IMG/VR virus record: IMGVR_UViG_2609459823_000005
Length of the DNA stretch: 13,986 bases
Reading direction: 5' to 3' (one strand)
DNA from: a virus
Taxonomy: Duplodnaviria > Heunggongvirae > Uroviricota > Caudoviricetes
Shown here: positions 1-13,986 of the stretch, in pieces
How the letters are laid out: every line of letters starts with the position of its first letter
How positions within the stretch are numbered: position 1 is the first letter of the stretch
The notes under the pieces: model-generated
The model's database searches: none
The model's input: only the letters and a program-made list of their open reading frames with translations
What the model was told of the DNA's origin: nothing
Position numbers and translations under genes: made by a program

Positions 1-732
1 GAGCGGCTAAAACTGGAGATTAAGGTGGCACATATCCGCACTCGCGAAACATATGGAACCCGGCGGCTCCAGACGGAGCTGGCAGAGAATGGCATCATCG
101 TTGGTCGTGACCGACTGGCACGTCTTCGTAAGGAGCTAAGGCTACGCTGTAAGCAGAAACGCAAGTTCAGAGCGACTACGAACCCGAACCACAATCTGCC
201 AGTTGCGCCAAATCTGCTGAACCAGACGTTCGCTCCTACAGCACCAAATCAGGTCTGGGTGGCGGACCTGACGTATGTTGCCACACAGGAGGGATGGTTG
301 TACCTCGCTGGCATCAAAGATGTTTATACGTGCGAAATTGTCGGCTACGCCATGGGAGAGCGCATGACAAAAGAGCTGACAGGTAAAGCCCTGTTTATGG
401 CGCTCAGGAGCCAGCGCCCACCTGCCGGGCTAATCCACCACTCTGATCGAGGTTCACAGTACTGCGCATACGATTACCGGGTCATACAGGAGCAGTTTGG
501 TCTGAAAACATCAATGTCGCGTAAAGGTAACTGTTACGACAACGCTCCGATGGAAAGCTTCTGGGGAACGCTGAAAAATGAGAGCCTGAGCCATTATCGT
601 TTTAATAACCGGGATGAAGCCATCTCAGTAATACGGGAATACATTGAGATTTTCTACAATCGTCAGCGTCGTCACTCTCGTCTGGGGAATATCTCCCCGG
701 CAGCCTTCAGGGAAAAAAAGAACAAATGGTAG
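1..732 (+). CDS. IS3-family transposase OrfB (DDE integrase), 5'-truncated by the window edge
   Basis: The reading frame is open from base 1 (the track's Met at 25 is internal) to TAG at 730-732. DDE-type motifs are visible: WVADLTYV, HHSDRGSQY and CYDNAPMESFWGTLKNE, with a C-terminal ISPAAF typical of IS3-family OrfB. The specific IS name is not recognised with certainty. Confidence 0.85.
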   Translation, partial: ERLKLEIKVAHIRTRETYGTRRLQTELAENGIIVGRDRLARLRKELRLRCKQKRKFRATTNPNHNLPVAPNLLNQTFAPTAPNQVWVADLTYVATQEGWLYLAGIKDVYTCEIVGYAMGERMTKELTGKALFMALRSQRPPAGLIHHSDRGSQYCAYDYRVIQEQFGLKTSMSRKGNCYDNAPMESFWGTLKNESLSHYRFNNRDEAISVIREYIEIFYNRQRRHSRLGNISPAAFREKKNKW

Positions 733-780
733 TGTCCGCTATTGCCAGTACACCTCATAATGAGGTCGAATTACTGCGCA
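1..780 (+). mobile_element. IS3-family insertion sequence, right-hand portion; right terminal inverted repeat not precisely located (somewhere in ~733-800)
   Basis: The transposase orfB ends at 732 and IS3-family elements usually carry a few tens of bp after orfB ending in ...CA (a CA occurs at 779-780). The boundary is an estimate because the left end is outside the window and no IR comparison is possible. Confidence 0.5.
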
Positions 781-1064
781 TTGAATTTTTTTCATAAAAA
801 AAGCATATATCCATTTGATTTGGCATTTGTTTTTTTCGTGTTTCTTATGAGTCATTTTCGCGTTTTTTTTTGAAACGGCTCAATAATGCCAAATCAACGT
901 ATAAGAAATAAACGGAACAGAACGCCTCACTTTAATGGTTTGAGATTTTTCTTGTTTCCGTATTGGTTTAAGCAGAAAATGTGTTTCTTAACATTTAGTG
1001 CTTGGTAATGATTCTCAGTTGCACTACCGAGTGCCCTATTAATGAAATCGTTGGACGTTACGCA

Positions 1065-1103
1065 CAGCACACTGGTAGCTAATGAGCCAGGGGCGGTAGC
1101 GTG
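1065..1103 (+). promoter_or_regulatory. JUMPStart 39-bp element containing the ops site (GGCGGTAGCGTG at 1092-1103); RfaH-dependent antitermination signal
   Basis: The sequence cagcacactggtagctaatgagccaggggcggtagcgtg matches the conserved JUMPStart element found upstream of enterobacterial polysaccharide operons, and its 3' end matches the ops consensus GGCGGTAGnnTG exactly. It sits about 90 bp upstream of the rmlB start. Confidence 0.85.
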
Positions 1104-1192
1104 CCTTGTTTTTGAATCAATGCCCTGGCTTGAATTTTGCATGTCGGTGCCACAGTAACAACTCGCAAACGCAAAGTAGATGGAATAAACTC

Positions 1193-2281
1193 GTGAAAAT
1201 ATTGGTCACAGGTGGGGCAGGTTTTATTGGATCTGCTGTCGTCCGTAATATCATTAAGAATACTCAGGATTCTGTAGTTAATGTTGATAAATTAACCTAT
1301 GCGGGCAATCTTGAATCGCTGGTTGAAATCGAAAACAGCGCCCGTTATGCTTTTGAATGTGCAGACATTTGTGATGCTGAGGCGATGTCGCGTATTTTCG
1401 CCACTCACCAGCCTGATGCTGTTATGCATCTGGCTGCAGAAAGCCATGTAGATCGCTCGATCACCGGCCCTGCTGCTTTTATTGAGACAAATATCGTGGG
1501 CACCTATGTGCTGCTTGAAGCCGCACGTAAATACTGGTCTCAACTTGATGAAACAAGTAAAGCCGCGTTCCGCTTTCATCATATTTCAACGGACGAAGTC
1601 TACGGCGATTTGCCGCATCCTGATGAAGTCCCCGCTGGCACCGCCTTGCCGCTGTTTACCGAGAAAACCCCTTATTCTCCCAGCAGTCCGTATTCCTCAT
1701 CGAAAGCGTCAAGTGACCATTTAGTACGTGCATGGCGCCGTACTTACGGCTTGCCGACCCTGGTGACGAATTGCTCAAATAACTATGGCCCATACCATTT
1801 CCCTGAAAAACTTATTCCGCTGATCATTCTTAATGCATTAGCTGGTAAGCCGTTACCGGTGTATGGCAATGGCGAGCAAATTCGCGACTGGCTATTTGTT
1901 GAAGATCATGCACGCGCCTTATATAAGGTCGTCACTGAGGGGGTTGCGGGTGAGACTTACAATATCGGTGGTCACAATGAGCGTAAGAATATTGAAGTCG
2001 TAAATACTATTTGTACTATTCTGGACGAAATCATTACTGCGAAACCTAATAATATTAGTAGCTTTGCAGAATTAATTACTTATGTCACCGACCGTCCGGG
2101 CCATGATCTGCGTTACGCCATTGATGCGAGCAAAATAAAAGATGAACTGGGCTGGGTACCGCAGGAGACTTTTGAATCAGGTATCCGCAAAACGGTTGAA
2201 TGGTATTTGACTAACCAGGACTGGTGGCAGCGTGTGATGGATGGATCATATGCTGGTGAACGCCTGGGGCTCGCAGAATAA
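1193..2281 (+). CDS. rmlB: dTDP-glucose 4,6-dehydratase
   Basis: Preferred start is the in-frame GTG at 1193, giving [14 protein letters not shown] (Rossmann GxxGxxG) and a length of ~362 aa. The catalytic YSSSK (YxxxK) and other blocks ([21 protein letters not shown]) closely resemble E. coli RfbB as recalled. The track's ATG at 1106 is rejected because that extension overlaps JUMPStart/ops. Confidence 0.92.
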
Positions 2282-2296
2282 AATCGTAAGGACGGA

Positions 2297-3172
2297 ATGA
2301 TGAAAGGTATTGTATTAGCTGGCGGTTCTGGAACTCGTCTTTATCCGATTACTCAGGGTGTGTCAAAACAGTTATTGCCTGTTTATGACAAGCCGATGGT
2401 TTTTTACCCAATATCAGTTCTAATGTTGGCAGGTATTCGTGACATTTTGATTATCACGACGCCGGAAGATATGGCCGCGTTTCAACGCCTGTTGGGAGAC
2501 GGCTCTCAATTTGGTATTCGCCTTTCCTATACTGTCCAACCTTCGCCGGACGGTTTAGCGCAGGCATTTATTCTGGGTGAAGAGTTCATTAATAATGAAC
2601 CTTGTGCTCTGGTGCTGGGCGACAATATCTATTTTGGTCAGAGTTTTGGTAAAAAACTCGAGGTTGCCTCTCAGTTGACCCAAGGTGCGATGGTATTCGG
2701 TTATAAAGTACAGGATCCTGAGCGTTTTGGTGTGGTTGAATTTGATGCGAACTACAAGGCATTGTCCATTGAAGAAAAACCACAGAAGCCAAAATCCAGT
2801 TGGGCAGTAACCGGTCTCTATTTTTACGACAAAAACGTTGTGGAAATGGCGAAGCAAGTCAAACCATCTGCTCGCGGTGAACTCGAAATTACGACACTTA
2901 ACCAAATGTATCTTGAACGCGGTGAGCTTCAGGTAGAGTTGCTCGGACGTGGTTTCGCATGGCTTGACACCGGCACACATGACAGTCTGGTTGAGGCTTC
3001 ACAGTTTATTCATACCATTGAAAAAAGGCAGGGTATGAAAGTCGCTTGCCTTGAAGAGATTGCGTTTCGCAATGGATGGATCGGCAGAGAACAACTTTTA
3101 GCGCAGGCAAAACTGTTCAGCAAAAATGATTATGGTAAGTATCTAAAAGTATTGGCTGGAGAACATGAATGA
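2297..3172 (+). CDS. rmlA: glucose-1-phosphate thymidylyltransferase
   Basis: The N-terminus [16 protein letters not shown](x)[13 protein letters not shown] is the nucleotidyltransferase signature, and the ~290-aa protein closely resembles E. coli RfbA. There are tandem ATGs at 2297 and 2300; the RBS aaggacgg (2288-2295) favours 2300. The stop overlaps the rmlC start (ATGA at 3169-3172). Confidence 0.92.
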
Positions 3173-3705
3173 ACGTCATTGACACTAAAATAAGCGATGT
3201 GAAGATTATTGAGCCAAAAGTCTTTGGTGATGAACGAGGGTTCTTTTTAGAAACATTTGAAAAAAAGAGATATCAAACCCTTTTGAATATCGATATGGAT
3301 TTTGTACAGGATAACCACTCACGTTCCAGCAAAGGCGTACTTCGTGGGCTTCACTTTCAGCGCAATAATCCTCAGGGGAAACTTGTTCGAGTAGTTCGTG
3401 GCGAAGTGTTTGATGTTGCTGTTGATATTCGTAAAGACTCACCAACCTATGGGGTGTGGGAAGGTGTAATTTTGTCAGAAACGAATAAAAAGCAATTCTG
3501 GATCCCACCGGGACTTGCTCATGGTTTCCTGGTACTCTCGGATATTGCTGATTTCGAATATAAATGTACCGACTATTATGATAGCAGTAGTGAAGGCTGT
3601 TTAATCTGGAATGATGAGCAAGTTGGGATTGCATGGCCAGTAATAGACGCTGAGATTAAACTTTCAGCAAAAGATGCTGTTGGTAAGTTACTGCGTGACC
3701 TATAA
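3169..3705 (+). CDS. rmlC: dTDP-4-dehydrorhamnose 3,5-epimerase family protein (RmlC-like cupin)
   Basis: The 178-aa protein has [11 protein letters not shown], the catalytic His in VLRGLHFQ, the GKLVR lysine, [10 protein letters not shown] and a Tyr in FEYK, which is the RmlC fold signature. Whether it performs a full 3,5-epimerisation or a single epimerisation cannot be told from sequence. Confidence 0.8.
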
Positions 3706-3760: not shown

Positions 3761-4540
3761 GTGTTTAATAGTTTCATTCAAGGCCTGATAAATTATCGTG
3801 TTGTACTAAAACAATTAATAAGACAACAAGTAACGCTCAGGTATCGCAGAACAATGTTCGGTTTTTTATGGACCCTGCTTAATCCTCTTCTGAATATGGC
3901 AGTAATAGCGACTGTCTTTTCAATCGTAATGAAATTTCAGATAAGAGACTACGCCATTTTTCTCTTCTCTGCAGTTATTCCTTGGACTATGTTTTCAAAT
4001 ATCATTTCACAATGTTCTAATTCATTGATAGCAAATGAAAATCTATTTAAAAAAATATACTTACCAAAACAGATATTTATAACCGCTAGCGCAGTATCTG
4101 TTTTTATTGATTCGCTTCTGAGTACTATCTGTTTATTCATCATTGCATATTTCTTTGGCGCAAAATTAAGTTTGGCATTGATGTTTCTTCCAGTTTCATT
4201 TGCGATCTTATTTATATTCGCTTATGGTTTGGGTCTGATTTTTTCTGTAGTTTCTGTTTTTTTGCGCGACATGCAGTATCTGATCGGTGTGATTTTGCAA
4301 GCTCTATATTTTATGACCCCTATCATATATCCCGTTGATGCTGTTCCGGAACAGTACAAATGGGTTTTTGCATGGAATCCTATGTACTATTTTGTTGATT
4401 TATTTAGGGATCCAATCTACAACAATCAATTCCCTCCAGCTTATTCATTACAGCTTTGTGCGCTGACTGCCATTATTTCACTTTTGGTTGGTTTGTATGT
4501 ATTTAAAGTAAATGACAAAAAAATTATCTTCAGGTTGTAG
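3761..4540 (+). CDS. wzm: O-antigen/polysaccharide ABC transporter permease (ABC-2 family)
   Basis: The N-terminal motif LRYRRTMFGFLWTLLNPLL is typical of Wzm/KpsM, and the rest of the 259-aa protein is strongly hydrophobic with multiple predicted TM segments. Start is assigned to GTG 3761 with GAGG at 3747-3750; the ATG at 3854 would remove the conserved motif. The 3' end overlaps the wzt reading frame. Confidence 0.82.
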   Translation: MFNSFIQGLINYRVVLKQLIRQQVTLRYRRTMFGFLWTLLNPLLNMAVIATVFSIVMKFQIRDYAIFLFSAVIPWTMFSNIISQCSNSLIANENLFKKIYLPKQIFITASAVSVFIDSLLSTICLFIIAYFFGAKLSLALMFLPVSFAILFIFAYGLGLIFSVVSVFLRDMQYLIGVILQALYFMTPIIYPVDAVPEQYKWVFAWNPMYYFVDLFRDPIYNNQFPPAYSLQLCALTAIISLLVGLYVFKVNDKKIIFRL

Positions 4541-4541
4541 T

Positions 4542-5291
4542 ATGGAATCTAAAATTATTTTTAAAAATGTCTCTCTCGTATTTGATGAACATCAGCAACG
4601 AGGTCTGACGTTCAAAGAGTTATTTGCACGCACTCTCTCCGGTCGGAATAACGCTATAAAGGCGAATAAGAGAAAAGCTTTGGATTCAATAAGTATCGAG
4701 ATAAACCATGGAGAGCGAATCGGTATTGTCGGAAGCAATGGGGCAGGGAAAAGTACGTTCCTAAAAACACTTTGTCGTATTTATGAGCCAACCTCTGGTG
4801 AAATAAGCATATCAGGTAATATTGCACCGTTACTTGAGATTGGGGCTGGATTTAATCCAGAACTAAGCGGAAGAGAAAATATATATTTGAATGGTGCAAT
4901 TCTGGGCCATAGTATTTCTGAGCTTAAAAGTTTGGAAGCAGAAATTATTTCATTTTCAGAATTAAGTGAATATATTGATACACCTGTCAAATATTATTCA
5001 ACGGGCATGTATCTTAAATTAGCATTTTCAATTGCGACGGCAATCAAGCCTGATATTTTAGTTTTAGATGAACTGTTTGCTGGCGGTGACGCGGAATTTG
5101 TTGCTAAAGCTAAAAAAAGAATGGAACATTTCATCGCGGAATCAAGCATTATGTTTTTTGTATCTCATCAATTAGATTTGCTGCAGGAATTATGTACCCG
5201 CGTAATATGGATCGACCATGGTAAATTAATTGCTGATGGTGTACCAGACAAGGTAATTGAAGCATATTTGAATAAAGGTCATCATGATTAA
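4542..5291 (+). CDS. wzt: O-antigen/polysaccharide ABC transporter ATP-binding protein, short form without a C-terminal carbohydrate-binding domain
   Basis: Walker A GIVGSNGAGKST, ABC signature YSTGMYLKL, Walker B ILVLDELFAGGD and an H-loop (FFVSHQ) are all present. The track ORF begins at ATG 4512, but ATG 4542 (MESKIIFKNVSL) immediately follows the wzm stop and gives a typical N-terminus. At ~250 aa the protein is a nucleotide-binding domain only. Confidence 0.85.
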   Translation: MESKIIFKNVSLVFDEHQQRGLTFKELFARTLSGRNNAIKANKRKALDSISIEINHGERIGIVGSNGAGKSTFLKTLCRIYEPTSGEISISGNIAPLLEIGAGFNPELSGRENIYLNGAILGHSISELKSLEAEIISFSELSEYIDTPVKYYSTGMYLKLAFSIATAIKPDILVLDELFAGGDAEFVAKAKKRMEHFIAESSIMFFVSHQLDLLQELCTRVIWIDHGKLIADGVPDKVIEAYLNKGHHD

Positions 5292-6045
5292 TATTATAAT
5301 AGTCAGCCATCAAAATTTAGCTGACATTGATAAAATTCTCACAGAACTTGCGGGTGAAAATGATTATTATACTATTTATGTTCGTGACAATGTTGCTGAT
5401 GAGAATTTGAAGCGCCTTTGTTCTGATTATAACGTCTCATATTGTTCTGGTATTCGCCGAGAAGGCTTTGCCCTTAATAATAATATTGCTGCCGAAAAAG
5501 TATTACACTCATGTGAAATAGCTGATGATGATTATTTCCTGTTTATGAATCCTGATGCATATATTATTCGCGACGAGCTGATCAAACTCTCAACTATTTT
5601 GAGCGAAAAAAAATACGATATGTTCACTGTTGATCTGTATAGTAATGATGAATATACAATAAGAGATCCTTCCATTCGATATTTTCCAACGCTAAAAACA
5701 TTTCTATCTTCTTTTTTATTTGATACTAACAAAAGTATTATTAACAGGGATGCCATTCATCAAGATTTCGACCTGGATTGGTGTGCTAGCTCATTCTTTG
5801 GCGTTAAAGTTGGTTTGTTTAAAAGACTTAATGGCTTTGATTCCCGATTCTTTATGTATTGTGAAGATGTGGATATCTGTTACAGGGCTAAAAAATTAGG
5901 AGCCAAGCTTAGTTATATTGCAAATGTAAAAGCAATACACTACACTCAGAAAAATAGTAAAAAGATGCTCACTAAAAATTTTTATTGGCACGTTAAAAGT
6001 GCCATATTGTTTTTATGGAAAAAGCATACCCTGTCAAAAGGTTAA
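5284..6045 (+). CDS. GT2-family glycosyltransferase, WbbL-like dTDP-rhamnosyltransferase (candidate Rha to GlcNAc-PP-undecaprenol adaptor transferase)
   Basis: The 253-aa protein shares blocks with the E. coli WbbL rhamnosyltransferase as recalled from memory: IIIVSH, VRDN, DDDYFLFMNPDAY, DWCASSF, NGFD, FFMYCEDVDICYR, AIHY and WHVKS. The start overlaps the wzt stop by 8 bp. Confidence 0.6.
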   Translation: MINIIIVSHQNLADIDKILTELAGENDYYTIYVRDNVADENLKRLCSDYNVSYCSGIRREGFALNNNIAAEKVLHSCEIADDDYFLFMNPDAYIIRDELIKLSTILSEKKYDMFTVDLYSNDEYTIRDPSIRYFPTLKTFLSSFLFDTNKSIINRDAIHQDFDLDWCASSFFGVKVGLFKRLNGFDSRFFMYCEDVDICYRAKKLGAKLSYIANVKAIHYTQKNSKKMLTKNFYWHVKSAILFLWKKHTLSKG

Positions 6046-6050
6046 GATAA

Positions 6051-6944
6051 ATGTATTCTGTTGTGATGGGATTCCGCGAAAACTATAAACATTATGGGTA
6101 CACTACTCTTTTTTCTTTATTAACAAATAATAAAAACTCTTTTTTTTCAATCTATCTCCTTTCAGATAATCTGGATTTTGCATTTTTTAAAAAACTGGAG
6201 GATGTTTTTGCTTGCAAAATCATCCCTATTTCTATTTCGGCTGATCATATTGAAAATGTAAATTGTGGCTATCTTTCCTTTGGGACACTAATCCGCTTAT
6301 TAATCGGTGATTATCTTCCTGCTAATGTCGAAAAGGTTCTATACCTTGATGCTGATTTGATAATTGATGGCGATATTCATGAACTTCTTAATTATGAGTT
6401 AGGTTCACAGTATGCGGCAGTCGTAAGATCGAGTGCTCCTTATAAGCATCTCAAGGACATTAGGATAACATCCGAGCAGTACTTTAATGCGGGGGTGATA
6501 CTTTTTAATATGGAGATGTGTAGAAAAGATGATATTTTCATAAAAAGCCTTGATTTGTTAAAACGGAATAATTTTAAATATTTAGATCAAGATGCACTTA
6601 ATATTGCAATGGTAAACAATGTAAAATATGTTGATTCTAAATGGAATTTCGACTCATTTAGAGCAAAAACAATCTTACTTGATAGGAGTTATGCAAATAA
6701 ATACCCTGCAATAGCAATTTATCATTTTACAGGGCGTGACAAACCATGGTTTAAACATTGCATCAACCAGTATCAGAGTATTTATCTTCGTTATTTCGCT
6801 GAAATTCTAGGCTATGATGTTATCAATAATAAAAATAAATTTCAGTATTTTAAATTTAAACTGATTAAATTCTTATTCAGTAACTTTGTAACCCGTAAAA
6901 TTATTTACCATTTAAGAAACTATATTCGGACTAATATTCACTAA
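6051..6944 (+). CDS. GT8-family retaining glycosyltransferase (RfaJ/RfaI/LgtC-like; alpha-hexosyltransferase)
   Basis: GT8 hallmarks are present: the DxD motif in LYLDADLIIDGD, FNAGVILFN, YLDQDALN and the C-terminal HFTGRDKPW (H-x-x-G-x-x-KPW). Length is 297 aa and the donor sugar cannot be assigned from sequence. Confidence 0.75.
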   Translation: MYSVVMGFRENYKHYGYTTLFSLLTNNKNSFFSIYLLSDNLDFAFFKKLEDVFACKIIPISISADHIENVNCGYLSFGTLIRLLIGDYLPANVEKVLYLDADLIIDGDIHELLNYELGSQYAAVVRSSAPYKHLKDIRITSEQYFNAGVILFNMEMCRKDDIFIKSLDLLKRNNFKYLDQDALNIAMVNNVKYVDSKWNFDSFRAKTILLDRSYANKYPAIAIYHFTGRDKPWFKHCINQYQSIYLRYFAEILGYDVINNKNKFQYFKFKLIKFLFSNFVTRKIIYHLRNYIRTNIH

Positions 6945-6953
6945 GGACATTTT

Positions 6954-8333
6954 GTGGAGACTATACAAATAGCCACTGGAGTAAGTCGTAACTTCTTTGA
7001 CCCATTGAGTGTCATGCTTACTTCCTTGCTTGAAAATAATCAATCACATAAAATCAATTTTCATGTTTTGCACAGTGATTTTACGGATGATGATGAAGAA
7101 AAATTTAGCCTTTTGTTTACTAAATATGAAAACCTGGGGCTTAAATTCATCAAGTTAGATGAATCTAAATTAGAAGGGCTTCCCCTTCTGCAACATTTCA
7201 AGATCTCAACGTATTTTCGAATTCTGGCGCCAGCTGTTTTAAGTGAATATGATAAACTCCTTTATCTCGATGCCGACATTATTGTTGACAATGATATTCT
7301 GGAATTATGGCAGACCGATGTCACCAACTATACCCTCGCAGCAGTTCGTGAAGAGAGTATTGTCGCGTTAGATAAACGTTTGAGAATGCCTGCCAATTAT
7401 AAGTATTTCAATGCTGGTGTTGTTGTATTAAATAGTAAAAAAATTCGAGAAGAAAATAAGTTCGGTCCTGTTATCGATTATCTAAAAGAAAATATCAATG
7501 AGATCCTTTATCTTGATCAGGATGCTTTAAATGCTATTCTCTACGATGAATGGTTAGAAATAGACGAGAAATGGAATTATCATAATACCTTTATCCTGAA
7601 AAAAAATAATAACAAAGAGCATATCTTATTAGATAAACCAGTTATTATTCATTATACTGGTCCAGTCAAACCATGGGATGCGGAAAGTTCACATATATTT
7701 AAAAGCCGCTATTGGCATTACAAGAAAATATTAACAGGGAGTGTCGATGAAATTAAAGCTGGTTTTAACATACATAGTACGCTTGCTAAAAGAATAATAA
7801 AATATGCATATAGAGTTATTCTTTCCAATTATTATTTAAGAAAGCTGATTCTTAAAACAAATACATCATTAAAGCAGAGTGAGCATTTTGCGAAATATTA
7901 TTTTAAGTTTAAGGAACGTTTTGCTCCTGCACCTCAGATAATGTCGTCATTCGAAGCGAAGTTAGTTCAAGTTGATGTACCACTTCTAGAATCAACCATG
8001 GATTATGGTTTTTTCAGTATAAGGGAGTTCTTGAACTATATACAAATTTCTGGATATGTTTTCAAAAAAGAGTTTTCTGATAGAAATACTAATAAATATT
8101 TTGTCTTGAGAAACAGTGTCGACCCTAATTTGCTATATTGTTTTAAACTTAACAGTCATGACCATGTTTGGATTAATGATATATATAATGATGGTAATGA
8201 CTATTCAAAAAGTGGGTTCTTTAATTTCATCGGCAAAAGAGAGCTTAAAAGTGGAAGGTATGAAGTTGGATTAATCGTCCAAAATTCAAAAGGTGTACAT
8301 TATAAAATGACTGACACTACAGTAATTATTTGA
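6954..8333 (+). CDS. GT8-family glycosyltransferase with an extra ~190-aa C-terminal extension (two-domain protein)
   Basis: The N-terminal ~260 aa carry the GT8 motifs LYLDADIIVDND, FNAGVVVLN, YLDQDALN and HYTGPVKPW. The C-terminal portion has no GT8 similarity and contains a block (ISGYVF ... LKSGRYEV) that is also seen in the next protein. Start is GTG 6954 with RBS AAGGA at 6943-6947. Confidence 0.75.
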   Translation: METIQIATGVSRNFFDPLSVMLTSLLENNQSHKINFHVLHSDFTDDDEEKFSLLFTKYENLGLKFIKLDESKLEGLPLLQHFKISTYFRILAPAVLSEYDKLLYLDADIIVDNDILELWQTDVTNYTLAAVREESIVALDKRLRMPANYKYFNAGVVVLNSKKIREENKFGPVIDYLKENINEILYLDQDALNAILYDEWLEIDEKWNYHNTFILKKNNNKEHILLDKPVIIHYTGPVKPWDAESSHIFKSRYWHYKKILTGSVDEIKAGFNIHSTLAKRIIKYAYRVILSNYYLRKLILKTNTSLKQSEHFAKYYFKFKERFAPAPQIMSSFEAKLVQVDVPLLESTMDYGFFSIREFLNYIQISGYVFKKEFSDRNTNKYFVLRNSVDPNLLYCFKLNSHDHVWINDIYNDGNDYSKSGFFNFIGKRELKSGRYEVGLIVQNSKGVHYKMTDTTVII

Positions 8334-8343
8334 CGAGGAATCC

Positions 8344-9564
8344 ATGGATATTAAAATTTATTCGTCTTTTTATAAAAAATACTTCATTTATAAAAGCGAC
8401 ATTGTAGAACCTGTTTTTGTTGGTGCGGCCGAAAAGAATAATGATTTAGGCATCATTGGTGATGATACTGGCGATAATATTAGCGATAAAAACGGCACGT
8501 TCAATGAATTAACTTTAATTTATTGGGTCTGGAAAAATACTACAAATCAAGATTATGTAGGCTTCTGTCATTATAGAAGATATTTTATAAATAGAAGCAT
8601 CAGTAAATTTGAAAAAGCATTGCATCTTCTGATTCCACGCGATAAAGAGCGTAGAGAGCGTAAATTATTACGTTTGTTACAGCAGTTTGATAAAAATTGT
8701 GAATCCGAATTGAAAGGATTTGATATAGCGTTACCTAAGCCTATTGTTATGAATCGTACTTTGCGTGAACAATATGCTGATTATCATGATGGCGCGCATT
8801 ATGAGGAAATGGGTAAGGTTATTCGAGAATTACGTCCTGACATGTGGCCTGCTTACGAAGATGCGTCAAATCGAAATACTTTCTTCATCGCTAATATGTT
8901 CATTTTTAGCCGCAAGTATTTTGATCAATTTTGCGAGTTTGCCTTTCCGGTTCTTTTTGAACTAGAGAAAAGGTTAGAAGTGCCGGATGATATGTATCAA
9001 AAACGTATTTTTGGATACTTAGGTGAGCGGTTGGTAACAATCTTTGTAAATTATTTATATCAACAAAAGAATGTTAAATTCAAATATTTTGATCTATTAA
9101 ATACTGATGTTATTTTTTCAAATTACAAATCGTATCTAACCGAAAAAAAATTAATAAGCAGTAAAAATAAAAACTACGTCACTTTTGGTGCTGTTGATAA
9201 TCTAATCAAAATGTCAAACAATTTTTACTGCATGAATGGTTGGGTTATAATTAAAGATCGCGAATCCTATAATGTTACGGTTCAAATTGAGTTATATAGT
9301 GATGAAAACACTATTATGCTTAATAGCGAAAGACAGGATCGGCCTGATGTAACCCGGCACTTTATCAATGTTCATGATGGGTACGTTAATTACGATAATT
9401 GCGGCTATTACACTAGTTTTAAATGTGATGAGATTAAAAGTGGTGAATATAAAATTAAGTTTCATGCATTTGATAAAATAGAGAAAACAACTTCAATTTT
9501 TTATGTTTATGACTGTTTTTTAAAGAAACATAAAAATGAAGTTGAGCTTGTGAGGTTACCATGA
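8344..9564 (+). CDS. DUF4422-type putative glycosyltransferase (WbbI/WbbM-N-like, candidate galactofuranosyltransferase) with a C-terminal extension
   Basis: The motifs ELTLIYWVWKN, VGFCHYRRYF and GYLGERLVTIF match my recollection of the DUF4422 family, which includes known Galf-transferases; this is not verified by a profile search. The C-terminal ~110 aa (NGWVI ... IKSGEYKI) resemble the C-terminus of the preceding protein. RBS GAGGA at 8335-8339; the stop overlaps the glf start (ATGA). Confidence 0.6.
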   Translation: MDIKIYSSFYKKYFIYKSDIVEPVFVGAAEKNNDLGIIGDDTGDNISDKNGTFNELTLIYWVWKNTTNQDYVGFCHYRRYFINRSISKFEKALHLLIPRDKERRERKLLRLLQQFDKNCESELKGFDIALPKPIVMNRTLREQYADYHDGAHYEEMGKVIRELRPDMWPAYEDASNRNTFFIANMFIFSRKYFDQFCEFAFPVLFELEKRLEVPDDMYQKRIFGYLGERLVTIFVNYLYQQKNVKFKYFDLLNTDVIFSNYKSYLTEKKLISSKNKNYVTFGAVDNLIKMSNNFYCMNGWVIIKDRESYNVTVQIELYSDENTIMLNSERQDRPDVTRHFINVHDGYVNYDNCGYYTSFKCDEIKSGEYKIKFHAFDKIEKTTSIFYVYDCFLKKHKNEVELVRLP

Positions 9565-10730
9565 TTAGTTATGATTACATTATTGTAGGCTGCGGTCTTT
9601 CTGGTATTGTTCTGGCAAATAATATTGCTGAGAAATTAAATAAAAAAGTGCTTATTATTGAGAAGCGCGATCATATCGGAGGAAACTGTTACGATTACTA
9701 TGATGAACATGGTGTCCTTGTACATAAATATGGTCCGCATATTTTCCATACAAATTATAAAGATGTCTATGACTACCTTGATCAATTCACTGAATGGTAT
9801 GTTTATCAGTTCCAGGCACGAACACTGATTGATGGTAAAAAAACATTTTTGCCCTTCAACCTGAACACGATGAAGGATATTCTTGACGAGCATTTATATG
9901 ACAAGATATCTAAAAAACTCATCGAAGTTTATGGTTATGATAAAACCGTACCTATTTTCGAGTTAAAAAAATCAGAGGATGAAACCATCCAATGGTTGGT
10001 TGACTATATTTACGATAAAGTCTATGTGAACTATATCGCTAAACAATGGGACATGAAACCCGAAGACCTCGACAAGAGTGTGCTTGAACGTGTTCCCGTA
10101 TATATTTCTCGCGATAATCGATATTTCAAAGACAAATATCAAGTTATGCCACGAGACGGTTATACGGTTATGTTCAACCGGATGTTGGCAAACAAAAACA
10201 TACATGTTCTGTTGAATGCTAATGCAGACGATTTTGTCACGCTGACCGATAAGCATGAAGTTCACTTCATGGGCAAGCCATTTGAAGGCAAGTTGATTTA
10301 CACCGGTCAGATTGATCATCTTTTCAATTATAAATTTGGCGAGTTACCTTATCGTTCCTTGCGCTTTGATTTTGTTAATTACAAAAAAGAGTTCTTCCAG
10401 GAAGTGGCTATGGTTAGCTACCCAAATAATTATGATTTCACTCGTATTACGGAAAGTAAGCATTTGACCGGGCAGGATTGCAAAACGACCACTGTTGTTT
10501 ATGAATATCCCCAGAATTATGATCGTAATGATCCTATCAAAGATGTACCTTATTATCCTGTGCCAAGAGCCGATAACCATGAACTTTATGCAAAATATTC
10601 AGAGCTTGCTGGTAAGTATAAATCTTTGATACTGGTTGGTCGTTTAGCTCAATACAAGTACTACAACATGGATCAGATGATCAAAGTTGCCCTTGATACA
10701 TTTAAAGAAATTCAAGCTGGAGAAAAGTAA
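9561..10730 (+). CDS. glf: UDP-galactopyranose mutase family flavoprotein (NDP-hexopyranose mutase)
   Basis: The N-terminal FAD-binding YDYIIVGCGLSGIVLAN ... KKVLIIEKRDHIGGNCY and HKYGPHIFHTN closely parallel E. coli K-12 Glf as recalled, with conserved blocks throughout the 389 aa. A dTDP-fucopyranose mutase (Fcf2-like) cannot be excluded from sequence alone. Confidence 0.85.
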   Translation: MISYDYIIVGCGLSGIVLANNIAEKLNKKVLIIEKRDHIGGNCYDYYDEHGVLVHKYGPHIFHTNYKDVYDYLDQFTEWYVYQFQARTLIDGKKTFLPFNLNTMKDILDEHLYDKISKKLIEVYGYDKTVPIFELKKSEDETIQWLVDYIYDKVYVNYIAKQWDMKPEDLDKSVLERVPVYISRDNRYFKDKYQVMPRDGYTVMFNRMLANKNIHVLLNANADDFVTLTDKHEVHFMGKPFEGKLIYTGQIDHLFNYKFGELPYRSLRFDFVNYKKEFFQEVAMVSYPNNYDFTRITESKHLTGQDCKTTTVVYEYPQNYDRNDPIKDVPYYPVPRADNHELYAKYSELAGKYKSLILVGRLAQYKYYNMDQMIKVALDTFKEIQAGEK

Positions 10731-11662
10731 TGAAGACTATTTTAATTGTTGGTGGTTCTGGCTTCATGGGTGCGAATTTTACTGAATACTTTGTTGCGAA
10801 AGGCTACAAGGTTATTAGCTTCAGTAATTCACCAACCCGTATCCAGCATGAAAATGTGGTAAATGTTTGCGGTGATAGCCGTGATGCCGAAGCTATTAAT
10901 GAAATTTTTGTTAATCACAAAATTGATTTGGTTGTTTTTACGTTGACGAGTTTTTGGGTGGTTGATGGGGTGAGCTCCTATCAAGATTTGACCGCCATTA
11001 ACCTGACTGCGTTTATCGATGTACTGAATATCATGAAGCGTCACAATGTTAATGAAGTGATTTACATCTCTTCTGGTGGCTCTATCTATGGAGAGTCCGA
11101 TAAGCCGATTCCGGAAGATTCACCGCTCTGCCCGGTCAGTTTTTATGGCTGGATCAAAGAAGCGGCAGAAAGCTATCTTAAATATGAAGCCCGTATTAAT
11201 CCCCATTTGCGCTATCTTGTATTTCGTCCTTCCAATGTTTACGGAAAATATCAGCAGCTCAACCGCATCATTGGTGTAGCGCTTAAAAATACACATTTGG
11301 ACATCCCAATGAATATTTATGGTGGTGCGGATACGAAGAAAGACTATATTTATATCGATGATTTCTGTGAGATCATCTTTAATATCTTGAATAAAAATGT
11401 CTGGAACGAAACGTACAATATTGGTTCTGGTGTCGGAACCAGCATTCGAGAAATTCTGGATCTTGCTCAGGAAGTTGTGAATAAGCCACTTGCTGTTGAG
11501 TATGGAAAACAGAAAGAGGGTGATATCAGTTATAGCGTATTAGATGTTGAGAAAGTTAAGGCTGTAACTGGTAAGCAAAGCTTCACCAACGTCAAAGACG
11601 GCATGCGTAAAATGTATCCGTACGTTGTCGAAGAACTGGCACGTCTGGCAGCGAAGGCCTAA
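10730..11662 (+). CDS. NAD(P)-dependent epimerase/dehydratase (extended SDR) family protein; candidate nucleotide-sugar 4-reductase or 4-epimerase
   Basis: Rossmann motif IVGGSGFMGANF at the N-terminus and catalytic YGWIK (YxxxK) preceded by ISSGGS. Length is 310 aa and the start overlaps the glf stop (TAATG). Precise activity is not assignable by eye. Confidence 0.7.
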   Translation: MKTILIVGGSGFMGANFTEYFVAKGYKVISFSNSPTRIQHENVVNVCGDSRDAEAINEIFVNHKIDLVVFTLTSFWVVDGVSSYQDLTAINLTAFIDVLNIMKRHNVNEVIYISSGGSIYGESDKPIPEDSPLCPVSFYGWIKEAAESYLKYEARINPHLRYLVFRPSNVYGKYQQLNRIIGVALKNTHLDIPMNIYGGADTKKDYIYIDDFCEIIFNILNKNVWNETYNIGSGVGTSIREILDLAQEVVNKPLAVEYGKQKEGDISYSVLDVEKVKAVTGKQSFTNVKDGMRKMYPYVVEELARLAAKA

Positions 11663-11862
11663 TAGCTTATCCTGCTTCTTGAGCAAGAGATGATTGTAAT
11701 GGTTTTGTTAACACTTTTTTGCTCAATAGTGGGCTAGTCCTTTAAAACTTTTTTAGGTTAACATGTTAGTCACGTATCCCGACGGCGAATGCGGCGTCGG
11801 GAATCCACACCTGACAGGAGTTTTGCATGCCTAAGCAACAAATCGGCGTTGTTGCTTAGGCC

Positions 11863-13233
11863 GTGATGGGGCGCAACCTGGCGCTTAACATCGAAAGCCG
11901 TGGCTATACCGTTTCCGTTTTCAACCGCTCCCGCGATAAGACCGAAGAAGTGATTGCCGAGAACCCCGGCAAGAAGCTGGTTCCGTATTATACCGTGAAA
12001 GAGTTTGTTGAATCCTTAGAAACTCCCCGTCGCATCCTGTTAATGGTGAAAGCGGGCGCTGGCACAGATGCTGCTATTGACTCCCTGAAACCCTATCTGG
12101 AAAAAGGCGACATCATTATTGATGGCGGTAACACCTTCTTCCAGGACACCATTCGTCGTAACCGCGAACTGTCTGCTGAGGGCTTTAACTTTATCGGTAC
12201 CGGTGTGTCCGGTGGTGAAGAGGGCGCACTGAAAGGCCCATCCATCATGCCTGGCGGTCAGAAGGATGCCTATGAACTGGTCGCACCGATCCTGACCAAA
12301 ATTGCAGCCGTTGCCGAAGATGGCGAGCCCTGTGTGACCTATATCGGTGCTGACGGTGCGGGCCATTACGTTAAAATGGTTCACAACGGTATCGAATATG
12401 GCGACATGCAGTTGATTTCAGAAGCCTACTCTCTGCTGAAAGGCGGTCTTAACCTGTCTAACGAAGAGCTGGCCACCACTTTTAGCGAGTGGAATAAAGG
12501 CGAGCTGAGCAGCTACCTGATCGACATTACCAAGGACATCTTCACTAAAAAAGATGAAGAGGGTAACTATCTGGTCGATGTGATTCTCGATGAAGCGGCC
12601 AACAAAGGTACGGGTAAATGGACCAGCCAAAGCTCGCTGGATCTCGGCGAACCGCTCTCCCTGATCACCGAATCCGTATTCGCACGCTATATCTCGTCGC
12701 TGAAAGAGCAGCGCGTTGCCGCATCTAAAGTTCTGAGCGGTCCGCAGGCCCAGCCTGCTGGCGATAAAGTGCAGTTTATCGAGAAAGTCCGTCGCGCATT
12801 GTATCTCGGTAAAATCGTCTCTTATGCCCAGGGTTTCTCTCAGTTGCGTGCTGCGTCTGACGAATACAACTGGGATCTGAACTATGGCGAAATCGCGAAA
12901 ATTTTCCGCGCTGGCTGCATCATTCGTGCACAGTTCCTGCAGAAAATTACCGATGCATACGCTGAAACACCGGCAATTGCTAACCTGCTGTTGGCACCTT
13001 ACTTTAAGAAAATTGCCGATGAGTATCAGCAGGCTTTGCGTGATGTTGTAGCCTATGCCGTACAAAATGGTATTCCGGTACCGACTTTTGCCGCTGCGGT
13101 TGCCTATTACGATAGCTACCGTGCTGCGGTACTGCCGGCAAACCTGATTCAGGCTCAGCGTGATTACTTTGGCGCACATACTTATAAACGTACTGATAAA
13201 GAAGGTGTATTCCATACGGAATGGCTGGATTAA
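11863..13233 (+). CDS. gnd: 6-phosphogluconate dehydrogenase (decarboxylating), N-terminal region disrupted
   Basis: The 456-aa ORF matches E. coli Gnd over essentially its whole length ([17 protein letters not shown] ... GVFHTEWLD). The conventional start is ATG 11827, preceded by RBS AGGAG (11816-11820), and would encode MPKQQIGVVA before an in-frame TAG at 11857-11859. The intact ORF therefore restarts only at GTG 11863 / ATG 11866 and lacks the first strand of the NADP-binding fold. Confidence 0.8.
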
Positions 13234-13364: not shown

Positions 13365-13745
13365 TTACTTACGGCCCGTAAACGGGCTGCCCGGATAGGG
13401 AATCGATAACTGCTCTCCCATTTTATCCTCTTCAAGCTGGTGCTTTATGTAATCCTGTATCTTCGCCGTGTTCTTACCCATCGTATCGACGTAATACCCT
13501 CTGCACCAGAACTCCCTGTTCCTGTATTTGAATTTCAAATCACCAAACTGCTCGTAAAGCATCAGACTGCTTTTCCCTTTCAGATATCCCATAAAGCCTG
13601 ATACGCTCATTTTGGGCGGGATCTCCACAAGCATATGGATATGATCTGCACAGCATTCAGCTTCCAGAATCCGTACACTTTTCCACTCACACAGCTTTCT
13701 CAAAATACTGCCTGTTGCTCTACGCTTCTCTCTGTAGAACACCTG
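13365..13745 (-). pseudogene. tnpA: IS200/IS605-family (IS200-like) transposase tnpA, 5'-truncated by IS1 insertion
   Basis: The minus-strand ORF encodes FYREKRRATGSILRKLCEWKSVRILEAECCADHIHMLVEIPPK ... YPGSPFTGRK, which matches IS200 TnpA as recalled, including the HuH motif (HIHML). About 27 N-terminal codons are missing; the match stops at 13745, where IS1 sequence begins. Confidence 0.85.
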
Positions 13746-13986
13746 GGTAATGACTCCAACTTATTGATAGTGTTTTATGTTCAGATAATGCCCGATGACT
13801 TTGTCATGCAGCTCCACCGATTTTGAGAACGACAGCGACTTCCGTCCCAGCCGTGCCAGGTGCTGCCTCAGATTCAGGTTATGCCGCTCAATTCGCTGCG
13901 TATATCGCTTGCTGATTACGTGCAGCTTTCCCTTCAGGCGGGATTCATACAGCGGCCAGCCATCCGTCATCCATATCACCACGTCA
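13746..13986 (-). mobile_element. IS1 insertion sequence, terminal ~240 bp (one end at 13746; the rest lies beyond the window)
   Basis: From 13746 the sequence reads GGTAATGACTCCAACTTATTGATAGTGTTTTATGTTCAGATAATGCCCGATGAC..., the canonical IS1 terminal sequence as recalled, and it contains the 3' end of insB on the minus strand. Confidence 0.9.
13761..13986 (-). CDS. insB: IS1 transposase InsB, C-terminal part (partial; the 5' end is beyond the window)
   Basis: The minus-strand translation [72 protein letters not shown] matches the IS1 InsB C-terminus as recalled. The ORF is open to the window end. Confidence 0.85.

Follow-up and report, generated by a model that had tools for sequence, protein, structure and literature searches.

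A mobile O-antigen gene cluster in Escherichia coli with a Glf-family mutase of proposed thymidine-linked 6-deoxyhexose specificity

A furanose module with a probable change of substrate

The DNA analysed here is a 13,986-nt stretch (IMG/VR record IMGVR_UViG_2609459823_000005; hereafter the window, always at its full length) in which eleven same-strand genes, from rmlB to a gene for an extended short-chain dehydrogenase/reductase (SDR), are followed by gnd and flanked on both sides by insertion-sequence genes; we read the eleven as one O-antigen operon. Near its end a glycosyltransferase gene of the DUF4422 type, the family GT111, overlaps a gene of the Glf family of flavin-dependent mutases that interconvert pyranose and furanose forms of nucleotide-linked sugars. 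An earlier note had taken this pair for a galactofuranose (Galf) module, with Glf supplying uridine diphosphate (UDP)-Galf to the transferase. As judged from sequence comparison, that interpretation was right in kind, a furanose-forming mutase beside a GT111 transferase, and probably wrong in substrate, and the locus is most likely best described as a mobile 6-deoxy-hexofuranose O-antigen module that works with deoxythymidine diphosphate (dTDP) sugars, a variant of known systems. What speaks against Galf made from UDP-galactopyranose is the presence of rmlBAC without rmlD, an SDR gene overlapping the mutase stop codon, the linkage of mutase, SDR and rmlA in 7 clusters, and an active-site pocket that departs from those of four solved UDP-galactopyranose mutases (UGMs). 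A mutase of the dTDP-fucose type, which the note had named as the outcome that would overturn its proposal, appears to be favoured by gene context and residue pattern alike.

On balance we favour a pathway in which RmlA and RmlB, with or without RmlC, together with the SDR and the mutase, would make dTDP-D-fucofuranose or dTDP-6-deoxy-L-altrofuranose, to be polymerised by the GT111 protein and a neighbouring family 8 glycosyltransferase, GT8b, for export by Wzm/Wzt. RmlA and RmlB would yield dTDP-4-keto-6-deoxy-D-glucose, which RmlC would epimerise and the 310-aa SDR would reduce at C4 to a galacto-configured dTDP-6-deoxyhexopyranose. Without an epimerase the product would be dTDP-D-fucose and then dTDP-D-fucofuranose, which is what Fcf1/Fcf2 of E. 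coli O52 make; with RmlC it would be dTDP-6-deoxy-L-altrose and then dTDP-6-deoxy-L-altrofuranose, by analogy with the HS:41 locus of Campylobacter jejuni. The Glf-family flavoenzyme would contract the pyranose ring to the furanose, the GT111 enzyme would transfer the furanose and, with GT8b as a retaining alpha-hexosyltransferase, would form a split version of the Klebsiella pneumoniae polymerase WbbM, a GT2-like enzyme and GT8a would build the adaptor on undecaprenyl-pyrophosphate-linked N-acetylglucosamine (Und-PP-GlcNAc), and a short Wzm/Wzt pump would export the chain. Between the two furanoses, 6-deoxy-L-altrofuranose (6d-L-Altf) is ranked slightly ahead of D-fucofuranose (D-Fucf) in the window cluster, because the strongly conserved RmlC has no other consumer. 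By stereochemical reasoning D-fucose (D-Fuc) and 6-deoxy-L-altrose (6d-L-Alt) share the C2-C4 configuration of galactose, which fits the mutase, whose ring-binding residues are unchanged, while L-rhamnose (L-Rha) or 6-deoxy-L-talose would not.

The active site of the mutase

Membership of the pyranose-furanose mutase family, as the note had supposed, is clear: the protein matches Pfam GLF (PF03275) at E 3.1e-68, NAD_binding_8, the FAD-binding Rossmann motif, at E 3.6e-19, and the UGM equivalog model TIGR00031 with 454.7 bits, and its closest solved relative is the UGM of Deinococcus radiodurans (DrUGM; 3hdq, E 2.6e-98). Twenty active-site residues have been tabulated for the UGMs of D. radiodurans, K. 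pneumoniae, E. coli and Mycobacterium tuberculosis (PMC3322874, Table 2), and these we mapped, in DrUGM numbering, on an alignment of 130 homologues. The window mutase keeps all catalytic and diphosphate-binding residues (H85, H88, Y179, W184, R198, Y209, F210, R305, E325, Y335, R364, Y370 and M373). Its pocket differs from that of DrUGM by five changes, H109>F, F176>Y, T180>I, T294>M and N296>S, so that F109, I180 and S296 stand where all four solved UGMs have H/N109, T180 and N296. The pattern F/L, Y, I/M, M/V, S at these positions occurs in every homologue of at least 61% identity and in three more distant ones, and the UGM pattern H/F/T/T-V/N is kept by nearly all of the other ~90 homologues (52-58% identity) as well as by glf of Erwinia, Pantoea, E. 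coli O124 and an ISKpn26-bounded island described below.

Two of the changed positions can be compared with a fungal enzyme, AfUGM, in which ribose O2 and O3 are bound by Asn163, the counterpart of T180, and Trp315, which corresponds to T294, lies 4.5 A away from C6 of galactose (PMC3322874). The change T180>I/M in the window clade, through which a hydroxyl would be lost at a ribose-contact position, would fit the 2'-deoxy nucleotide dTDP. A comparator of proven 6-deoxyhexose specificity is HS41.17 of C. jejuni HS:41, a mutase for the cytidine diphosphate (CDP)-linked pyranoses CDP-D-Fucp and CDP-6d-L-Altp whose sequence is given in the supplement of PMC12369002. It is 38% identical to the window mutase and has L109, Y176, V294 and A296; T180 is kept, consistent with its ribonucleotide substrate. 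V294 is not diagnostic, being found in ordinary UGMs too, and the three diagnostic features, Tyr176 with a hydrophobic residue at 109 and a small one at 296, are common to both enzymes (F/Y/S in the window, L/Y/A in HS41.17).

Two of these positions, 109 and 296, vary together across the wider family. From a full HMMER search 143 diverse Glf-family representatives were drawn; among these, hydrophobic side chains at 109 covary with residues other than Asn at 296 (24/26 versus 6/117, Fisher p 1.6e-19, phylogenetic relatedness ignored), 134 have Thr or Ser at 180, and the pattern of the window clade is rare. About one in six lack the UGM pocket, and those that carry a name are annotated UGM. The survey also brought up a separate subtype with R/K88, Y109 and Q294, which may comprise UDP-N-acetylgalactosamine (UDP-GalNAc)-type mutases. 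A homologue with L109 as its only change (L103, 44-2159) is overlapped by an upstream SDR gene. Automatic annotation labels every Glf-family protein a UDP-galactopyranose mutase. Positions 109, 176, 180 and 296 offer a testable rule to tell UGMs from 6-deoxyhexose mutases, and perhaps users of ribonucleotides from users of deoxyribonucleotides, which, if confirmed, would re-label a sizeable Glf clade.

The SDR and the rml genes

The SDR is the only enzyme of the cluster able to consume the 4-keto-6-deoxy sugar. A tblastn search of the window with RmlD as query gave no match, and there is no RmlD-like open reading frame (ORF) in it. The SDR itself falls short of every specific model: galE is its top NCBIfam score at 118.6 bits with a cutoff of 262.3, the rmlD models give 41 bits against 224 (TIGR01214) and 24 against 308, and the rmlB model also stays under its cutoff. 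Among solved structures it comes closest to proteins annotated as UDP-glucose 4-epimerases (4zrm, E 1.1e-31). The cofactor-binding strand was considered as a marker to tell reductases from epimerases and dropped, the pattern not being uniform across the family. A profile search of contigs returned, among the matches listed, mostly proteins of ~30% identity and one close relative, from Rahnella. No protein of the cluster is better conserved than RmlC (84-92% identity to Enterobacterales orthologues, against 70-88% for the others), which is therefore in use.

In Erwinia amylovora, Pantoea agglomerans and Rahnella, homologues of the SDR (50-56% identity) are encoded immediately 3' of rmlB-rmlA, in 20-kb loci that have neither rmlC nor rmlD, and must therefore reduce the RmlB product directly. 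A genuine galE stands upstream in the Erwinia and Pantoea loci; with the SDR placed after rmlB-rmlA, a simple GalE role is thereby ruled out. The SDR may also have a dual role in the window, giving D-Fuc to the mutase and L-Rha to the GT2 adaptor enzyme. The loci of E. amylovora (L008), P. agglomerans (L010) and Rahnella bonaserana (L013), at ~7.6-17.6 kb, have the order wzm-wzt-wbbM-like fusion-glf-GT2-GT4, resembling Klebsiella O2a, with rmlB-rmlA-SDR upstream and a glf whose residues follow the ordinary UGM pattern, which predicts polymers of Galf and a 6-deoxy-D-hexopyranose (D-Fuc or D-quinovose).

Conservation of the block in other clusters

In clusters with this mutase clade, which represent about five gene orders or lineages, the SDR gene is immediately 3' of the mutase gene in 7 of 7 and rmlA is present, whereas an adjacent SDR gene is found in none of seven control clusters with mutases of ordinary UGM type (E. 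coli O124, the ISKpn26 island of E. coli AMSCJX03, Geobacillus, Methanobacterium, Erwinia, Pantoea and Rahnella). In the window rmlA, rmlB and the SDR gene share an operon with the mutase, the linkage looked for in a mutase of nucleoside diphosphate (NDP)-linked 6-deoxyhexoses. The full block of GT8b (458-459 aa), DUF4422 (403-421 aa), mutase and SDR, together with rmlA, occurs in Franconibacter, in Ewingella and in three unrelated metagenomic lineages (L097, L099/L100, L101/L102) that differ in gene order and neighbours, and rmlC is missing from two of these three (L099, L101). In L101/L102 (6.4-9.0 kb) the SDR in the mutase-adjacent slot is only 30% identical to that of the window; by sequence it appears to be a non-orthologous replacement, and it can be argued therefore that the mutase requires a neighbouring reductase.

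Chromosomal versions occur as well. Franconibacter helveticus (L095; assembly GCA_003207695.1) has a version between galF and gnd with the same gene order and an SDR 86% identical, Ewingella americana a syntenic galF...gnd version (70%), and Cronobacter turicensis an orthologue of the DUF4422 protein (74%). Citrobacter (L093/L094, 5.7-12.1 kb) retains rmlBAC, the mutase (88%) and the SDR (84%), with GT8b and the long DUF4422 gene swapped for a short DUF4422 gene (261 aa) and a 605-aa GlfT2-like gene (Pfam Glft2_N), which implies a different polymer made from the same furanose donor. One of the metagenomic clusters (L099/L100, 2.6-7.3 kb) encodes a Wzt with a C-terminal binding domain (Wzt_C) and has CMP-Kdo-synthetase-like and KpsC/S-like (Capsule_synth) genes, suggesting Kdo (3-deoxy-D-manno-octulosonate) capping of the same kind of polymer there, in contrast to the cap-less system of the window.

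The GT111 transferase and its partner

The DUF4422 protein's N-terminal domain is a bona fide DUF4422/GT111 domain. A profile search places residues 4-236 in PF14393 (E 3.6e-61; score 207 bits, cutoff 25; profile columns 1-217 of 220), as the earlier note had expected, and WbbM (PDB 6u4b) is related to it both in sequence (E 2.9e-32) and as the sole significant Protein Data Bank (PDB) match of its AlphaFold (AF2) model (pLDDT, the model's confidence score, 88.7; E 9.7e-18 over 285 columns). The motifs DDTGDNIS, HYRR and ER, to which the family literature assigns a catalytic role, align as identical with WbbM and are invariant in 18 homologues. We propose that the protein is a 6-deoxy-hexofuranosyl (or Galf) transferase, for which the gene context would favour a furanose donor other than UDP-Galf.

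Both this protein and GT8b end in a beta-sandwich domain of ~120 residues (encoded at 9180-9561 and 7960-8333), and the two domains are homologous in a profile comparison (hhalign 86%, E 5e-6, 76 columns), on which the homology rests, pairwise BLASTP being marginal (E 0.011). The domain of the DUF4422 protein models at pLDDT 93, and its nearest likenesses are the accessory domains of TarS and RmlT. GT8b adjoins a long DUF4422 gene in every case (L095, L096, L097, L099 and L101). This suggests that GT8b and the DUF4422 protein may make up a split WbbM-like polymerase, with the shared domain joining the two or binding the polymer.

The gene overlap from which the note had argued for a dedicated furanose incorporation step is real: both ORFs were confirmed, with stop TGA (9562-9564) and start ATG (9561-9563) sharing ATGA at 9561-9564 and a GAGG Shine-Dalgarno sequence 5 nt upstream of the mutase start. 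As evidence for a specific coupling of the pair it says little, because most junctions of the operon are as tight; 4 of the 10 from rmlB to the SDR gene overlap (DUF4422/mutase and rmlA/rmlC by ATGA, wzt/GT2 by 8 nt, mutase/SDR by 1 nt in TAATG) and the remainder span at most 15 nt, save for 55 nt between rmlC and wzm. Translational coupling was accordingly rejected as an argument, and the dedicated step stays plausible for the pair. Orthologous clusters show no overlap between the DUF4422 and mutase genes, the two lying 0-3 nt apart, and in Citrobacter another gene lies 5' of the mutase gene; the adjacency of mutase and SDR is retained in all.

Alternative explanations

Several points weigh against the 6-deoxy-hexofuranose pathway. 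WbbM, the only characterised GT111 enzyme, uses UDP-Galf as donor, and GT8 enzymes use UDP-sugars, which would bring UDP-Gal chemistry into the cluster anyway. Databases all name the mutase UDP-galactopyranose mutase, and the 454.7 bits on TIGR00031 stand above a cutoff of 303.75, although the model may not tell UGMs from the related deoxysugar mutases. The covariation statistic takes no account of relatedness, the binding of O6 by positions 109 and 296 would follow from that covariation and one comparator rather than from a structure, and the putative role of T180 is carried over from the equivalent residue of a fungal enzyme. An alignment of the SDR with HS41.18, the reductase of C. jejuni, is confined to the Rossmann motif and shows no meaningful similarity. 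By stereochemistry, moreover, the SDR could equally be a non-orthologous RmlD that makes dTDP-L-rhamnose for the GT2, freeing the mutase to be a UGM. This last point leads to an ordinary UGM with a GT111 Galf-transferase, making a galactan-I-like polymer of Galf and galactopyranose (or glucose), in which RmlB, RmlA and RmlC with the SDR as non-orthologous RmlD would give dTDP-L-rhamnose or 6-deoxy-L-talose for an adaptor added by the GT2. We think this unlikely, although not far-fetched: besides the TIGR00031 score and the donor of WbbM, the catalytic residues are all conserved, a galacto-type C4 reductase acting on a 3,5-epimerised ketosugar would on stereochemical grounds yield L-rhamnose, the 253-aa GT2 has a faint rhamnosyltransferase match (TIGR01556, 18.8 bits), and the GlfT2-like gene of the Citrobacter variant recalls the mycobacterial GlcNAc-Rha-galactan. 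It leaves unexplained, however, the coordinated changes at 109, 176, 180, 294 and 296, which are clade-wide and three of which recur in a proven 6-deoxyhexose mutase, the linkage of SDR and mutase in the rmlC-less L099 and L101, which could not make L-Rha in this way, and the 30%-identical SDR in the same slot.

A promiscuous mutase, forming both UDP-Galf and a dTDP-6-deoxy-hexofuranose so that the polymer would contain either or both according to substrate supply, seems improbable to us. Glf-family enzymes with relaxed specificity are known, and the residues that bind the ring at C2-C4 are unchanged here. HS41.17 takes both C5 epimers (PMC12369002), and the C. jejuni mutase UNGM is cited in that paper as handling both Gal and GalNAc. 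Yet with polar residues gone from 109 and 296, and Thr gone from 180, a preference that has shifted rather than broadened is indicated, and no component of the cluster specifically needs UDP-Galf. More remote still is a different role for the SDR, either as a bifunctional 3,5-epimerase/4-reductase, beside which a separate and strongly conserved rmlC would be redundant, or as a GalE-like 4-epimerase feeding UDP-Gal to the mutase and the GT8 enzymes. The GalE-like role would agree with the annotation of the solved relatives and with galE as the top, if sub-cutoff, NCBIfam model; against it stand the genuine galE upstream in Erwinia and Pantoea, the place of the SDR after rmlB-rmlA, and the lack of any other consumer of the 4-keto product.

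Returning to the 6-deoxy-hexofuranose pathway, a more far-reaching version can be put forward only tentatively, and we give it less than even chances. The Enterobacterales module, with RmlC and no RmlD, might make dTDP-6-deoxy-L-altrofuranose, its GT111 enzyme might be the first 6-deoxy-furanosyltransferase of the family, the presence or absence of RmlC might switch between 6d-L-Altf and D-Fucf polymers, and the unit might spread between Cronobacter/Franconibacter-like chromosomes and conjugative plasmids of E. coli as an unrecognised O serotype. If true, the thymidine-linked 6-deoxy-L-altrofuranose pathway would be one never described before. Should the favoured 6-deoxy-hexofuranose reading be confirmed in itself, the one-member GT111 family would gain a new donor sugar, and a split WbbM-like polymerase with an accessory domain shared by both halves would be added. 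To our knowledge, 6-deoxy sugars in furanose form are absent from mammals and strongly antigenic.

Layout of the window

The features of the window are collected in Table 1. With wzm and wzt, no wzx or wzy, glycosyltransferases and sugar-precursor genes in one operon, and a JUMPStart/ops leader, the cluster has what is looked for in an ABC-transporter-dependent O-polysaccharide locus. The ops element, an established antitermination signal for RfaH, would have that role here too. A search of solved structures with the 253-aa GT2-like protein found no relative; the protein is kept in L093, L095 and L096 at 47-64% identity.

Table 1. Positions, strands and supporting matches of genes and sites in the window
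Feature	Position	Strand	Evidence
IS3-family transposase orfB, 5'-truncated; left boundary of mobile cluster	25..732	+	Pfam rve E 2.4e-26, HTH_21, rve_2/3
ops element GGCGGTAG in JUMPStart-like leader, ~95 nt 5' of rmlB	1092..1099	+	one exact match, 0.12 expected by chance
rmlB, dTDP-glucose 4,6-dehydratase	1193..2281	+	NF007490 698 bits, cutoff 649; called in identical contigs
rmlA, glucose-1-phosphate thymidylyltransferase	2297..3172	+	TIGR01207 511 bits, cutoff 360
rmlC-type dTDP-4-keto-6-deoxyglucose 3,5-epimerase	3169..3705	+	TIGR01221 263 bits, cutoff 156
wzm, ABC-2 permease, O-polysaccharide exporter	3761..4540	+	Pfam ABC2_membrane E 4.1e-20
wzt, short ATP-binding subunit without C-terminal carbohydrate-binding domain	4542..5291	+	Pfam ABC_tran E 4.3e-19; 249-259 aa
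253-aa GT2-like glycosyltransferase, candidate adaptor transferase	5284..6045	+	Glyco_tranf_2_3/Glycos_transf_2 weak, sub-cutoff
GT8a, retaining glycosyltransferase family 8	6051..6944	+	Pfam Glyco_transf_8 E 1.4e-35
GT8b: GT8 domain (residues 6-243) and C-terminal extension ending in beta-sandwich-type domain	6954..8333	+	Pfam Glyco_transf_8 E 3.7e-51
GT111 (DUF4422) glycosyltransferase (residues 1-~255) and C-terminal beta-sandwich (residues ~280-404); 406 aa, ATG start	8344..9564	+	
Glf-family flavin-dependent NDP-hexopyranose/furanose mutase, altered pocket; 389 aa, ATG start	9561..10730	+	
Extended SDR, 310 aa, proposed dTDP-4-keto-6-deoxyhexose C4-reductase	10730..11662	+	Pfam Epimerase E 2.8e-36
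gnd, travelling with the cluster; ~85% DNA identity to E. coli gnd	11827..13233	+	
IS200/IS605-type Y1 transposase, right boundary	13365..13823	-	Pfam Y1_Tnp on gene called in identical contigs

Occurrence, mobility and serotype

Many draft assemblies of E. coli encode identical cluster proteins; an assembly collection lists the mutase in 236 of its indexed blocks, and the named records are E. coli. The central 8 kb was not found by megablast or blastn in 5,426 complete E. coli genomes or in PLSDB, where matches were confined to IS elements, rmlBA and gnd. One assembly joins the cluster to DNA that shares 99.9% identity with the ParB/PsiB leading region found in conjugative plasmids of 86-113 kb; in others its borders are IS30, IS3, IS200 and IS256 elements together with a resolvase gene (boundary regions: window 1-1100 and 13365-13986, L005 1-720, L001 13800-19075). 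Near-identical copies of the IS3-family transposase at the left end of the window number in the thousands among plasmids and E. coli genomes. E. coli has thus imported the cluster as a mobile O-antigen locus with its own gnd, and O-typing by sequence at galF-gnd would miss such a plasmid-linked cluster, present as it is in draft E. coli and not in complete reference genomes or PLSDB.

Other mobile O-antigen-like loci came to light alongside. The K. pneumoniae IncX3 resistance plasmid NZ_CP036195.1 (L007, 11.2-24.9 kb) carries an IS26-bounded rfbBADC-wzm...rhamnan-synthesis-type cluster whose rfbB/rfbA are 89% identical to window positions 928-3079, leader included, and which is thus another plasmid-borne locus of this kind. 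The chromosome of E. coli AMSCJX03 (L011, 8.4-16.8 kb) holds, beside an integrase gene, an ISKpn26-bounded island of the order wzm-wzt-glf-GT-GT4 that is Klebsiella galactan-like, with no wbbM between wzt and glf and with two more glycosyltransferase genes past the second IS copy. This island, together with glf of O124/O164, also accounts for the distant blastn matches that had been sought as Fcf1/Fcf2 of O52. Mobile clusters like that of the window are candidates for orphan serogroups such as E. coli O20, O57 and O60, whose functional O-antigen clusters are not at galF-gnd and are unlocated (PMC7685785). In the text of the same review D-Fucf is given only for E. coli O52 and the word 'altrose' does not occur, and if the 6-deoxy-furanose assignment is right, the window cluster is probably none of O20, O57 and O60.

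Comparison with known systems

The cluster combines features of three characterised systems. With the D-galactan I locus of K. pneumoniae O2a (wzm-wzt-wbbM-glf-wbbN-wbbO) it shares an O-polysaccharide that depends on an ABC transporter, whose Wzt is short and has no binding domain, and the adjacency of GT111 and GT8 domains (joined in WbbM) to a Glf-family mutase, the GT111 fold being confirmed here. It differs in that GT8 and GT111 are separate proteins in reverse gene order, that GT8b and the DUF4422 protein each end in a homologous beta-sandwich instead of the linking region of WbbM, that WbbN and WbbO have no homologues in the window, and that the mutase has a changed pocket and is linked to rmlBAC and an SDR. 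Genuine fusions of the WbbM kind, with a glf of UGM type, are found in the Erwinia, Pantoea and Rahnella relatives. The C-terminal beta-sandwiches of Staphylococcus aureus TarS and Listeria RmlT have ~9% identity to the window domain, in a generic Ig-like fold, and a role in oligomerisation or polymer binding could be suggested by analogy only.

In E. coli O52, RmlA, RmlB, the reductase Fcf1 and the mutase Fcf2 (GenBank AAS99162), the one dTDP-specific mutase to have been characterised, make dTDP-D-Fucf (according to Wang et al. 2008, as cited in PMC10888714). The window would share with it the same proposed dTDP-sugar chemistry, an ABC-transporter-dependent cluster and a Glf-family mutase annotated UGM, a likeness drawn by pathway. 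In contrast to the window, RmlC has no role in O52, and the window cluster is mobile rather than at galF-gnd. In C. jejuni HS:41 a nucleotidyltransferase, a 4,6-dehydratase, an RmlC-like epimerase, a C4-reductase and a Glf-like mutase (HS41.17-21) have been proven to make CDP-D-Fucf and CDP-6d-L-Altf; both C5 epimers are taken by one reductase and one mutase, and it is the RmlC-like epimerase that decides between D-Fucf and 6d-L-Altf (PMC12369002). There the sugars are linked to CDP, here dTDP is proposed; HS41.17 keeps T180, and identity between the mutases is 38%; the two reductases have nothing but the Rossmann motif in common; and HS:41 serves a capsule, not an O antigen. Even so, the five-step logic would be identical in both, and the L/F109, Y176, small-296 pattern of the mutase is common to them.

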